From the NCBI GenBank assembly GCA_937931165.1, contig CALHCI010000191.1, positions 1 to 23,488 on the forward strand: a stretch of DNA of 23,488 nucleotides. The letters are read 5' to 3'. The DNA comes from an uncultured Granulosicoccaceae bacterium (GTDB taxonomy: Bacteria; Pseudomonadota; Gammaproteobacteria; Granulosicoccales; Granulosicoccaceae). The notes under the pieces were generated by a model. It searched no databases, was not told the DNA's origin, and worked only from the letters and a program-made list of their open reading frames with translations. Position 1 is the first letter of the stretch; each line of letters starts with the position of its first letter. The position numbers were made by a program, and so were the translations under genes. Of the stretch, positions 17,385-21,728 are shown piece after piece.

Positions 17385-18404
17385 TCAAACAGGCGCCGGC
17401 CCTAACGATCCACGCTCTACCAATGGTACCTGCAATTTGATCTGCCGGGCTTTGTGTTCACCACGCAGCTGATCGATCAGCACTGTGGCGGCCTGAGTGC
17501 CCATCTCAACGTGTGGTACATCGACCGTAGTGATCGCAGGCTCGACCAGTTCAGCATGTTCGAGGTTATCAAAACCGGTGATCGAAACATCACGCGGTAC
17601 ATGCAACCCGATCTGTTGCGCTCGCCTTATCGCACCGGCGGCCTGCACATCGTTGCCGCACATCACGACGGTGGGAGCATTCGAACCGGCCATCAGACCG
17701 TCAAAGGCTTCACCTGCCGCATCAATTTCATAGGGCACTTCGGCAATCTGCAGTGCATTGGCTTTAAGCCCGAATGACGCCAGTGCGTCGCGCACGCCGG
17801 CGACCCTTGAGCGGGCGCGATCATTTTGCGACAGCGGTGCCGAAATCACACCAAACTTTCGATGCCCGAATTCCAGCGCCTTTTGGGTGAGTTCACGCAT
17901 CGCAGCGCCATTATCAAAGCCGACGCATGACTGTCCTTCCAGTACTTCGGAAGTCCAGCCGATCACATACGGCATATTTCTTTGCTTTAGAAACCGGTAG
18001 ATCGATTCATCCCGTTCTGCGCCAACCAGAAACAATCCATCAACCCCGCGAGCAATGAGCGCACGAATCTGTCTGGCTTCGGTGTCGCGATTGCTGTCTG
18101 ATGCCGCCAGTACCAGCGTCCAGCCGAGTTTGTCGAGCTCGACCTGAAAGGCATGAATGGCTCGGGAGAAAATGGCACTGGCAAGTGTGGGAATCACCGC
18201 GCCGATAATGCCGGTACGACGTGTCACCAGCGCTTTTGCGCCGAAATTGGGTGCGTAGCCAAGCGACTCAACCGCCGCTTCGACGCGCTCCCGCGTGGTA
18301 GATGCCACACGTTCCGGCGCATTCAGACAGCGCGACACAGTCGCGGTGGAGACCGCGGCGAGCCTGGCTACGTCTTCAAGTGTCGGTACTGTCTGGTCAA
18401 CCAT
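17385..18404 (-). CDS. LacI-family transcriptional regulator
   Basis: N-terminal HTH (PTLEDVARLAAVSTATVSRCLN) followed by a periplasmic-binding-protein-like sugar-binding domain. Confidence 0.9.
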   Translation of the reverse strand: MVDQTVPTLEDVARLAAVSTATVSRCLNAPERVASTTRERVEAAVESLGYAPNFGAKALVTRRTGIIGAVIPTLASAIFSRAIHAFQVELDKLGWTLVLAASDSNRDTEARQIRALIARGVDGLFLVGAERDESIYRFLKQRNMPYVIGWTSEVLEGQSCVGFDNGAAMRELTQKALEFGHRKFGVISAPLSQNDRARSRVAGVRDALASFGLKANALQIAEVPYEIDAAGEAFDGLMAGSNAPTVVMCGNDVQAAGAIRRAQQIGLHVPRDVSITGFDNLEHAELVEPAITTVDVPHVEMGTQAATVLIDQLRGEHKARQIKLQVPLVERGSLGPAPV

Positions 18405-18438
18405 TCAACCTGCTCGGGTAAAACCACTTCGTAGAGTG

Positions 18439-18454
18439 ATGTAAGCGCTTGCAT
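18439..18454. promoter_or_regulatory. LacI-family operator O1: atgtaagcgcttgcat, a 16-bp imperfect palindrome (14/16)
   Basis: An identical 16-mer is present 51 bp downstream. It resembles the cre/LacI-family consensus TGTAAGCGCTTACA. Confidence 0.6.
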
Positions 18455-18489
18455 CAGCTGAATACAAGGGTATACTCTCTGCGATAGAA

Positions 18490-18505
18490 ATGTAAGCGCT
18501 TGCAT
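18490..18505. promoter_or_regulatory. LacI-family operator O2 (atgtaagcgcttgcat), identical to O1. It overlaps the predicted +1 region of the plus-strand operon.
   Basis: Exact repeat of O1. The putative -35 ttgcat (18449-18454, inside O1) and -10 tatact (18471-18476) lie between the two operators. Confidence 0.6.
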
Positions 18506-18576
18506 TAACAAAGTTCGGATTCGCGCGCCGATAACAAAAAGTACCGCTGTACCAACGCACCTCGAGGAACACCACA

Positions 18577-19878: not shown

Positions 19879-20639
19879 GTCAGTCACCTGCAGCATTGTT
19901 TGATCTTACCGGTCGCGTTGCCTGCGTTACCGGTGCAAGCTCCGGGCTTGGTCAGGCGGCAGCCGATGCATTGATTGCAGCCGGTGCCAAAGTAGTTGGC
20001 GTTGCCAGACGTGAAGCTGAGCTAAGCGCATGGCAACAGCAAGCAGGTAGCAATGCAGCAACGGTTACTGCAGATCTTGCCGAACTTGAAGCCATAGAAA
20101 ATGTCGCTTCGGCGGTCGCAGTGCCATTTGGTGCACCGGATATTCTGGTCAATGCAGCAGGCATTAATACCCGGCAGCCTGCAGATGATGTAGACGCCGA
20201 CCAATGGCGTTTAAGCCTGGACTTAAACTTAAGCGCACCGTTTTATCTGGCCAGGGCCCTTGCACCCGGTATGCAGCAAAAGCAATGGGGGCGTATTGTT
20301 AATTTTGCCTCGCTGCAAAGCTACCGTGCCTTTCATGCAGGCATTGCTTATGGTGCTGCCAAAGGCGGGCTGGCACAGCTTACCCGGGCCATGGCAGAAG
20401 CCTGGTCTGCACAGGGCATTAACGCCAACGCGGTTGCACCGGGCTTTTTTCGCACACCGCTAACCGCGCCTGTATTTGCAGACAATGAACTGTCCGGCAA
20501 GCTTGCAGCACAAACCTGCATTGGCCGTAACGGCGAACCTGCCGACCTTGTTGGTCCGCTCATTTTTCTCTGTAGTGAAGCTTCAGCCTACGTCACCGGA
20601 CAAATATTGCCGGTAGATGGCGGCTTCACTGCAAAATAA
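19875..20639 (+). CDS. Short-chain dehydrogenase/reductase (SDR) family oxidoreductase
   Basis: TGASSGLG cofactor motif and YGAAK catalytic motif. The GTG start overlaps the upstream stop (GTGA). Confidence 0.85.
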   Translation: MSQSPAALFDLTGRVACVTGASSGLGQAAADALIAAGAKVVGVARREAELSAWQQQAGSNAATVTADLAELEAIENVASAVAVPFGAPDILVNAAGINTRQPADDVDADQWRLSLDLNLSAPFYLARALAPGMQQKQWGRIVNFASLQSYRAFHAGIAYGAAKGGLAQLTRAMAEAWSAQGINANAVAPGFFRTPLTAPVFADNELSGKLAAQTCIGRNGEPADLVGPLIFLCSEASAYVTGQILPVDGGFTAK

Positions 20640-20665
20640 TCGCATCACCCCTTCAGGAGAACCCA

Positions 20666-21163
20666 ATGTCCATCAGTGACAAGCTGGTCAACGACCTGGC
20701 AGCAAACCAGGTTAACTTCGTCACTACGGTACCGTGTAAACAACTCGGTGGCGTTATTGACGGCATAGAAAAACACGCAGATATCAAGCATGTGCCATGC
20801 AACAAGGAAGACGAAGGTATTGGCCTGTGCGCCGGTGCATGGATGGGTGGCACCCGCCCTGCCATCATTATGCAAAACACGGCTATCGGCGTAACCGTGA
20901 ACACACTGGTCACACTTACCCAGTTTTACCGCATGCCACTGCCTATGTTAATCAGCTACCGGGGTGAATTGAGAGAGCCGGTTTCATGTCAGGTAGAAAT
21001 GGCCGTGCATACCAAGGCACTGCTTGATCAACTACTTATTCCAACGTACCACTTTCACCAGGAATCTGACGCAGAAGAATTCGATACGATTTTAAAATAC
21101 TGCTTCATGTCCAAAAAGCCTGTCGCAATTTTAACCGACGCCAATTTCTGGGGAGGTTACTAA
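20666..21163 (+). CDS. comD: TPP-dependent decarboxylase alpha subunit (ComD-like, sulfopyruvate decarboxylase type)
   Basis: 165-aa protein matching the TPP-enzyme N-terminal pyrimidine-binding domain. RBS aggaga is present. It lies immediately upstream of the beta-subunit gene. Confidence 0.65.
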   Translation: MSISDKLVNDLAANQVNFVTTVPCKQLGGVIDGIEKHADIKHVPCNKEDEGIGLCAGAWMGGTRPAIIMQNTAIGVTVNTLVTLTQFYRMPLPMLISYRGELREPVSCQVEMAVHTKALLDQLLIPTYHFHQESDAEEFDTILKYCFMSKKPVAILTDANFWGGY

Positions 21164-21164
21164 A

Positions 21165-21728
21165 ATGATCCGCTCTGAACTACTCAAAAACCTATACCCG
21201 ATTCTTGAAAAGCACTTTGTTGTCTGCAACATCGGGCTGCCGAGCCAGGAACTACACCAGCTCGGTGATCGTGAAAACTTCTTCTATATGCTCGGCACCA
21301 TGGGGTTGTCTTCATCGATTGGCTTCGGGCTGGCGCTTAATCAACCGCAAACCATTATATCCATCGATGGCGACGGCTCCGTATTGACTAACCTCGGCAC
21401 GCTTTCCACGATCGGTAATAACGACGCTGATAACTACATTCTGTTTATTGTAGATAACGGCAGCTACGGCTCTACCGGTGATCAGCCGACTTATGCAGGT
21501 GGCAGAACCTCACTGACAGAAGTGGCCAAAGCATGCGGTTGTGAAAACGTGGTTGAATGCCAGGACACTGAAGGCCCGGCTACCCTGCAGGCGGCTATAG
21601 ACAGTAAAAAGAAAACTGTGATTGTCTGTAAGTGTGAGTCCGGCAATATCAAACTACCAGTCATCGACACTGACCCGGTGGTGATTCGCCACCGCTTTAT
21701 GGCCGCGCTGGATGCAGCCAACTCCTGA
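21165..21728 (+). CDS. comE: TPP-dependent decarboxylase beta subunit (ComE-like)
   Basis: TPP-binding motif GDGS…(27 aa)…DNGSYGSTG. RBS ggagg is present. Its start is 1 nt after the comD stop. The split alpha/beta organisation is characteristic of sulfopyruvate decarboxylase ComDE, although some phosphonopyruvate decarboxylases are also split. Confidence 0.65.
   Translation: MIRSELLKNLYPILEKHFVVCNIGLPSQELHQLGDRENFFYMLGTMGLSSSIGFGLALNQPQTIISIDGDGSVLTNLGTLSTIGNNDADNYILFIVDNGSYGSTGDQPTYAGGRTSLTEVAKACGCENVVECQDTEGPATLQAAIDSKKKTVIVCKCESGNIKLPVIDTDPVVIRHRFMAALDAANS

Follow-up and report, generated by a model that had tools for sequence, protein, structure and literature searches.

The DNA studied here is a 23,488-nucleotide stretch (the window; contig CALHCI010000191.1 of assembly GCA_937931165.1) from an uncultured marine gammaproteobacterium of the family Granulosicoccaceae, and it forms part of a 25.9-kb ENA metagenome contig (ERZ6863860 c_000000389419) that reaches about 2 kb beyond it. 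On the basis of protein identities, active-site residues, synteny and operator conservation, all read from the sequence, we consider that the window very probably contains a compact form of an already described module for the aerobic breakdown of 2,3-dihydroxypropane-1-sulfonate (DHPS), with a regulator gene, hpsR, divergent from a predicted operon hpsN-hpsO-comD-comE. As a major currency of carbon and sulfur, DHPS passes from phytoplankton to marine bacteria, and the Granulosicoccaceae are a family associated with algae and invertebrates. The locus is an ordinary one and not a new pathway; what the analysis adds is small, namely a conserved candidate operator for HpsR and the description of layouts which lack either hpsP or hpsO. 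A first-pass annotation of the same DNA had proposed a route from DHPS via sulfolactate and sulfopyruvate to sulfoacetaldehyde. This core, with HpsN and ComDE at its centre, is supported by the match of HpsN to solved structures, by diagnostic residues and by conserved synteny, whereas what that annotation said of the regulator, the second enzyme, the missing genes and the neighbouring genes needed revision.

Enzymes and gene order of the predicted operon

The HisD-like protein encoded by the first gene of the operon is far nearer to HpsN than to bona fide histidinol dehydrogenase (HisD), a comparison that the first-pass annotation had itself suggested as a check. It aligned without gaps over 407 residues with the crystallised HpsN of Ruegeria pomeroyi (RpHpsN, PDB 8wwe; 668 bits, E 4e-200) and matched HpsN of Cupriavidus pinatubonensis (CpHpsN, PDB 8v35) at 528 bits (E 2e-157), whereas the best match to a true histidinol dehydrogenase had an E-value of 6e-72 and HisD structures scored at most about 246 bits. 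Identity to RpHpsN is about 76%, a value judged by eye from the alignment and not computed, and identity to HpsN proteins of the Rhodobacterales is 74–77%; the closest hpsN genes, at 91–96% identity, are found in metagenome-assembled genomes of other uncultured Granulosicoccaceae. In a small neighbour-joining tree the HpsN proteins of this family fell within a clade dominated by Rhodobacterales, at a resolution too poor to claim transfer, and composition gives no sign of a recent horizontal transfer, the G+C content at third codon positions of the hps genes being inside the range of the neighbouring genes.

Work on CpHpsN has described the loop G-R-Y-A/S-H, in which the terminal His is bound first to zinc and afterwards to the sulfonate, at the place where HisD has G-S-A-P-L, together with the zinc ligands Gln248, His251, Asp352 and His411* (the last from the partner subunit), the catalytic pair Glu318/His319, and Lys353, which contacts the sulfonate; the enzyme was inactive on histidinol and glycerol-1-phosphate, and it binds L-cysteate (PMC11382572). 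In the window protein GRYSH occupies residues 123–127, and Q249, H252, D353, H412, E319, H320, K354 and H360 are all conserved at the aligned positions, with Thr227 replacing Ser226 of CpHpsN. Since it carries GRYSH and all of the listed residues, we assign the protein to HpsN, on its similarity, its loop motif and its zinc and catalytic residues. The curated NCBIfam hisD model TIGR00069 is passed as well (437.7 against a cut-off of 243.8), so automatic pipelines would name this protein histidinol dehydrogenase. Domain and hidden Markov model (HMM) searches of the larger open reading frames found no his genes in the window.

The second gene encodes a short-chain dehydrogenase/reductase (SDR), which the first-pass annotation had by implication taken for the 2-hydroxyacid (sulfolactate) dehydrogenase of the pathway. 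Its product matches the crystal structure of HpsO from R. pomeroyi (RpHpsO, PDB 8wwf) at E 4e-104, and its residues S146, Q148, Y159 and K163 align with S145, Q147, Y158 and K162 of RpHpsO, where Ser, Tyr and Lys are catalytic and the Gln hydrogen-bonds the C2 hydroxyl of (R)-DHPS (PMC11131964). The hpsO homologues of Rhodobacterales hps clusters are 61–69% identical, and hpsN followed by hpsO is the order common to most related loci. We conclude that this SDR is an HpsO orthologue predicted to act on DHPS, and not a sulfolactate dehydrogenase.

The last two genes would encode the two subunits of a split thiamine pyrophosphate (TPP) decarboxylase of ComDE type, predicted to be sulfopyruvate decarboxylase (EC 4.1.1.79). 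ComD scored above the cut-off of the model for the alpha subunit of that enzyme (TIGR03845; 149.7 bits, cut-off 147.95). For both subunits the scores with the sulfopyruvate decarboxylase models were roughly double those with the phosphonopyruvate decarboxylase model, which gave 78 bits for ComD and 130 bits for ComE. The TPP motif of ComE, GDGSVLTNLGTLSTIGNNDADNYILFIVDN from residue 69, has 26 residues between GDG and N, as in the definition GDG-X(24-27)-N. ComD and ComE are 73–87% and 65–77% identical, respectively, to the comD and comE products of hps clusters. An exact-sequence look-up of ComE had no hit, and when metagenomes were scanned with this protein, identities did not exceed 77%, which gave no closer view of this lineage but did widen the synteny survey.

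All five open reading frames were found exactly where the first-pass annotation had placed them (Table 1). The regulator gene is separated from the divergent operon by 172 bp, hpsN starts with GTG behind a GAGGAA Shine-Dalgarno sequence (18564–18569), both of which are kept in relatives, and the GTGA overlap between the hpsN stop and the hpsO start, claimed before, is present in the sequence. A single base separates comD from comE, with a Shine-Dalgarno sequence of its own before each. Downstream of comE, the region 21729–21815 folds at -32.4 kcal/mol (z = -2.96), and none of 200 shuffles was as stable; no U-tract lies directly 3' of the stem, which is why the terminator scan did not report this hairpin. 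About 450 nt of non-coding DNA follow the hairpin before a DEAD-box helicase gene. The same gene arrangement was assembled from two samples (contigs L161 and L162).

Taken together, these assignments suggest the following scheme. HpsN, using zinc and two NAD+, would oxidise (R)-DHPS by way of sulfolactaldehyde to (R)-sulfolactate, with HpsO as an SDR partner that would also act on (R)-DHPS; sulfolactate would be converted to sulfopyruvate by a dehydrogenase encoded outside the window, and ComDE would decarboxylate sulfopyruvate to sulfoacetaldehyde, while uptake and desulfonation (Xsc/Pta) would be encoded elsewhere. HpsR, bound to two copies of ATGTAAGCGCTTGCAT, would keep the operon, and probably hpsR as well, repressed until it is released by DHPS or by a pathway intermediate. 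In this scheme we infer the substrates and, for the control of the operon, its direction, its inducer and the promoter.

The divergent regulator and its candidate operator

A LacI-type regulator had been regarded in the first-pass annotation as noncanonical for such a cluster, a view that turned out to be mistaken for marine bacteria. In the re-annotation of R. pomeroyi the gene immediately upstream of hpsKLMNOPQ-slcD, SPO0590, is entered as 'LacI family transcriptional regulator, hpsR' (PMC4334477), and a 2026 proteomics paper considered it likely that HpsR regulates hpsNOP; regulators of LacI type are therefore normal for marine clusters. Homologues of the window protein occur at 81 related loci, with identities of 39–90% overall, 72–90% within the Granulosicoccaceae and 46–54% to the divergent regulator of Rhodobacterales hps clusters.

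The intergenic region between hpsR and hpsN holds two palindromes, O1 and O2, which share the 16-mer ATGTAAGCGCTTGCAT; both exact copies of this 16-mer in the window are located here. Allowing up to three mismatches, 0.34 matches would be expected in the window by chance, and no shuffle reached the observed count. O1 is conserved in the three loci L001–L003, and among the 81 related loci with a LacI homologue, 80 have at least one site (up to two mismatches) in the 250 nt that precede the regulator gene. Over 2.29 Mb of sequence, 128 sites lie near the regulator and 5 elsewhere, and in hpsN loci without a regulator the site is mostly absent (19 of 22). Across Alpha- and Gammaproteobacteria the site reads ATGTAAGCGCTTGCAT or, less often, ends in ...TTACAT, giving the motif ATGTAAGCGCTT[GA]CAT. 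From this distribution, the palindrome is likely to be the HpsR operator.

The distance between O1 and O2 is usually 22–23 bp in related loci and 50–51 bp in the window and in L002, where an insertion carries a conserved TATACT. Strict scanning for promoters and terminators gave no hit between hpsR and hpsN; a relaxed hexamer scan returned a weak, sigma-70-like candidate for the hpsN promoter in which this TATACT would serve as the -10 element (8 of 12 matches). The candidate -35 hexamer falls within O1, and O2 follows shortly after the point where transcription is expected to start, a placement that fits simple repression of the hps operon.

Table 1 Predicted features of the locus and of the adjoining genes.
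Feature	Position	Strand	Basis and remarks
hpsR, predicted hps-operon repressor	17385-18404	minus	LacI family: Pfam LacI helix-turn-helix (residues 8-53) and Peripla_BP_1/3
Operator O1 (probable)	18437-18456	none	20-bp near-palindrome TGATGTAAGCGCTTGCATCA; 16-bp core ATGTAAGCGCTTGCAT at 18439-18454
Candidate hpsN promoter (weak)	18449-18476	plus	TTGCAT, 16-nt spacer, TATACT; relaxed hexamer scan
Operator O2 (probable)	18489-18506	none	18-bp palindrome AATGTAAGCGCTTGCATT; same 16-bp core at 18490-18505
hpsN, predicted (R)-DHPS 3-dehydrogenase / sulfopropanediol 3-dehydrogenase, EC 1.1.1.308	18577-19878	plus	HisD fold, PF00815 446 bits
hpsO, predicted SDR-family DHPS dehydrogenase	19875-20639	plus	RpHpsO similarity; directly after hpsN
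comD, predicted sulfopyruvate decarboxylase alpha subunit, TPP pyrimidine-binding domain	20666-21163	plus	TPP_enzyme_N, TIGR03845
comE, predicted sulfopyruvate decarboxylase beta subunit, TPP diphosphate-binding domain	21165-21728	plus	TPP_enzyme_C, TIGR03846
Stem-loop, probable operon end	21746-21779	plus	Directly 3' of comE stop; RNA fold
Type I dehydroquinase-like protein	14368-15267	minus	PF01487; below aroD equivalog cut-off (122.5 vs 139.3)
Xylose-isomerase-like TIM-barrel protein, 287 aa	15880-16743	minus	Start most likely 16743, as in all homologues
SET-domain protein	16791-17309	minus	PF00856, E 4e-14; no NCBIfam match

Related loci, missing genes and alternative readings

To place the gene order in context, the window proteins were mapped onto 160 loci (L001–L160), 80 of them collected from species-representative genomes via HpsN and 80 from metagenomes via ComE. 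Where enough flank was available on both sides (77 loci), a LacI homologue lies upstream in 60 and comDE within 6 kb downstream of hpsN in 38. The fullest layout, that of L013, has a LacI gene divergent from DctP-DctQ-DctM, hpsN, hpsO, hpsP (a dehydrogenase of the MDR family), a small gene, comD, comE and a flavin mononucleotide (FMN)-dependent dehydrogenase gene, which is the published hpsRKLMNOPQ/comDE/slcD gene set. In L003, also from the Granulosicoccaceae, hpsR is divergent from hpsN-hpsO-comD-comE and an LldD-like FMN dehydrogenase gene, putatively SlcD-like, follows directly, ahead of an ATP-binding cassette (ABC) transporter. The operon of L120 ends after comE, like that of the window, and recJ, glpX and hom come next.

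Layouts with only one of the two additional dehydrogenase genes were also found. An hpsO without a nearby hpsP is seen in the window and in L003, and probably also in L151, a fragment of 1.7 kb in which almost nothing separates the match to hpsO from that to comD; five loci from Tateyamaria and relatives (L007, L028, L039, L078, L079) have the reverse, hpsN-hpsP-comDE without a nearby hpsO, without a LacI homologue and without an operator site. Published surveys took only genomes in which hpsN, hpsO and hpsP occur together, which left such layouts outside their sampling. Should the hpsO-only and hpsP-only layouts hold true genome-wide, they would argue against an obligatory HpsO-HpsP racemase and for independent enantiomer-specific dehydrogenases.

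Two further observations concern these loci. L112 and L114 each carry a second HisD/HpsN-like paralogue, 43–45% identical to the window HpsN, on the minus strand (at about 1091 and 1185, respectively), which lies some kilobases upstream from the hps cluster and opposite to it in orientation. Downstream of the FMN dehydrogenase gene in L003, positions 12399–18569 hold a CUT1-type ABC transporter (SBP_bac_1, permease and MalK-like ATPase), a xylose-isomerase-like TIM-barrel gene different from that of the window and a Gfo/Idh/MocA oxidoreductase gene; a role of these genes in uptake or in sulfosugar metabolism is possible, and no HpsR operator was found before any of them.

Several points weigh against reading the locus as a DHPS module. 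The window has no candidate for the sulfolactate dehydrogenase (SlcD, SlcC or ComC), with no FMN_dh or Ldh_2 gene; its larger open reading frames include no HpsP, hpsQ, transporter (HpsKLM, HpsU), Xsc/Pta or SuyAB; and the 25.9-kb source contig has none of sulfolactate dehydrogenase, HpsP, transporter and Xsc/Pta. The locus by itself therefore encodes no complete pathway. ComE scored 217.4 bits with the model for the beta subunit of sulfopyruvate decarboxylase (TIGR03846), 4 bits short of the cut-off of 221.5, and the close PDB matches include no solved or assayed sulfopyruvate decarboxylase. The reaction of HpsO is itself disputed in the literature, either as oxidation at C2, forming half of a racemase with HpsP, or as oxidation at C3 to sulfolactaldehyde. 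On the side of regulation, the direction of repression and the inducer are deduced, like the promoter with its weak match, from the layout of the region. The first-pass annotation had also recorded that a transporter, Xsc and SuyAB are lacking from the window, which is correct, and had counted this as a misfit with described clusters, which does not stand, as related clusters frequently lack a transporter and Xsc nearby; the work on CpHpsN likewise found that the sulfolyase genes are often not co-located (PMC11382572).

An alternative possibility, which we regard as unlikely, is that the operon serves L-cysteinolate instead of, or besides, DHPS, in which case HpsN would produce L-cysteate, a housekeeping aminotransferase would convert this to sulfopyruvate, and ComDE would decarboxylate the latter. 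Such a route needs no sulfolactate dehydrogenase and would thus explain the missing slcD-like gene, of which tblastn with the L003 protein as query detected no remnant downstream of comE. A HpsN homologue from Bilophila, with the same substrate-binding residues as CpHpsN, prefers L-cysteinolate over (R)-DHPS and makes L-cysteate (PMC12814064), and the binding of L-cysteate by CpHpsN points the same way. However, no cuyC racemase, cuyA, cuyB or aminotransferase gene is present in the window, the HpsO encoded in the operon keeps the Gln for recognition of the C2 hydroxyl of (R)-DHPS, an FMN dehydrogenase gene comes immediately after comE in L003, the closest relative by gene architecture, and RpHpsN, to which the window HpsN is so similar, was assayed on (R)-DHPS. 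It is very unlikely that the locus is instead an incomplete, non-functional remnant of an hpsKLMNOP-comDE-slcD cluster which has lost its transporter, hpsP and slcD. The lack of hpsKLM, hpsP, hpsQ and slcD in comparison with the fullest clusters (L013, L042) would be expected of a remnant, but the five open reading frames are intact with their active-site residues conserved, both operators are exact and the translational coupling is preserved, all of which speaks against decay; moreover, the arrangement recurs in two samples, clusters that end at comE before housekeeping genes, as in L120, are common, and the published surveys mentioned above report a frequent dispersal of the later pathway genes.

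That the same folds serve a different acid, such as a phosphonate or a sugar acid (the alternatives raised in the first-pass annotation), or that the first enzyme is a true histidinol dehydrogenase, appears extremely unlikely. The passing score with TIGR00069 would suit a HisD, among solved structures ComE comes nearest to a putative beta subunit of phosphonopyruvate decarboxylase (E 3.5e-19), and the SDR also resembles gluconate 5-dehydrogenases. Against this stand the replacement of GSAPL by GRYSH, a similarity to HpsN about 280–420 bits above that to any HisD, the inactivity of CpHpsN on histidinol and glycerol-1-phosphate, the roughly twofold advantage of the sulfopyruvate models over the phosphonopyruvate model, and a gene context with neither a his gene nor a phosphoenolpyruvate mutase gene in the window. 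A further proposal, rather unlikely in our view, takes hpsN-hpsO-comDE without hpsP or an slcD-like gene as a self-sufficient variant and not as a fragment of a dispersed pathway, serving either a DHPS route limited to the (R)-enantiomer or a route from cysteinolate to cysteate with a general aminotransferase.

We retain the compact DHPS module as the preferred reading. It leaves the current picture of sulfonate catabolism unchanged and adds an uncultured Granulosicoccaceae lineage to the carriers of hps and comDE genes, while the conserved 16-bp operator could be used for mapping the HpsR regulon and for the design of reporters and electrophoretic mobility shift assays.

Neighbouring genes and known systems

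The TIM-barrel and SET genes lie beside the regulator gene and on its strand, as the first-pass annotation had noted, but they are not conserved with the hps genes and do not belong to the hps module. Queries with the TIM-barrel, dehydroquinase-like and SET proteins found no matches in L001–L160, except for SET in L002, and no operator site occurs near the SET or TIM-barrel genes; we regard both as unrelated neighbours. Outside the window, a SET gene adjoining hpsR was seen only in its closest relatives, which are L002 and the near-identical contigs L161–L163. In the window a promoter-like site (TTGACA-16-TAAGAT) is located just upstream of the SET gene, in the gap after hpsR. The product of the gene has a lysine-rich segment of 40 residues at the N-terminus (KKDNKIKDNKIKDGPKKEGRKKDSKKKNKLDKK), encoded by a degenerate 15-nt tandem repeat (17221–17300), and ends in a Cys-rich motif resembling a post-SET region.

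The TIM-barrel protein is extremely conserved, with relatives 82–100% identical to it making up at least 120 clusters at 90% identity, from Granulosicoccaceae/Chromatiales and from Alphaproteobacteria such as Roseibium, yet it matches neither an NCBIfam model nor a PDB sequence. In L165 its homologue follows a tripartite ATP-independent periplasmic (TRAP) transporter and an enolase-superfamily (MR_MLE) gene and not hps genes, a context which suggests an uncharacterised enzyme of an acid-sugar pathway. Kinship with the TIM-barrel protein of L003 was considered and rejected (E 0.03 over 26 residues). Between the TIM-barrel gene of the window and the dehydroquinase-like gene lie about 600 nt that show no obvious open reading frame. 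The dehydroquinase-like gene contains an in-frame 18-nt tandem duplication (14893–14938, encoding DNVLAG DNVLAG), and its product is extended at the C-terminus by about 60 residues.

Farther from the operon, a TetR gene (12185–12799) overlaps with the start of a gene for a non-pyrrolysine methyltransferase of the MttB family (12796–14331), and a EutQ/cupin gene (11739–12104) and a DAO-family FAD oxidoreductase gene (10402–11757) are divergent from these two; the region 10402–14331 looks like a module for the demethylation of quaternary amines of betaine type. On the plus strand an RtcB RNA ligase gene (2291–3520) lies directly downstream of an SPFH/Band 7 gene (1122–2261), with no rtcA or rtcR visible in the window. 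An Rfam scan of the window returned tRNA only, and the tRNA-Asn (GTT) at 674–746 on the plus strand overlaps a 106-residue open reading frame (548–868) that is probably spurious.

Among characterised enzymes outside sulfonate metabolism, HisD has its fold in common with HpsN, and likewise an octahedral zinc site, a catalytic Glu-His pair and the four-electron oxidation of an alcohol to an acid; HpsN differs in having GRYSH instead of GSAPL, and the window lacks a his-gene context and shows a similarity to HisD far below that to HpsN. The hpsRNOUPsuyAB cluster of Cupriavidus pinatubonensis JMP134 contains a homologous HpsN with identical zinc, sulfonate and catalytic residues and an HpsO-type SDR, but it also encodes the major facilitator superfamily transporter HpsU and HpsP, and it has the sulfolactate lyase SuyAB in place of ComDE. 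Its HpsR belongs to a different regulator family, the IclR type.

Closer counterparts are the Xsc-pathway clusters of Rhodobacterales and marine metagenomes, such as L013, L014 and L120, in which hpsR is divergent from (hpsKLM) hpsN-hpsO-hpsP-(hpsQ)-comDE-(slcD). They share with the window the enzymes and their order, the regulator family and the operator, and differ in having hpsP between hpsO and comD. Granulosicoccus antarcticus has been listed earlier as a representative of these clusters and as a species with the HpsNOP/SlcD/ComDE/Xsc route (PMC11382572). The hpsRKLMNOPQ-slcD cluster of R. pomeroyi DSS-3 (SPO0590–SPO0598) resembles the window in its divergent LacI-family HpsR, in hpsN followed directly by hpsO and in the same active-site residues, and Rhodobacterales loci related to it have the same 16-bp operator upstream of the regulator. 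In comparison, the window lacks the TRAP genes hpsKLM as well as hpsP, hpsQ and slcD, its operators are 51 bp apart instead of the usual 22–23 bp, and comDE has been joined to the operon right after hpsO.

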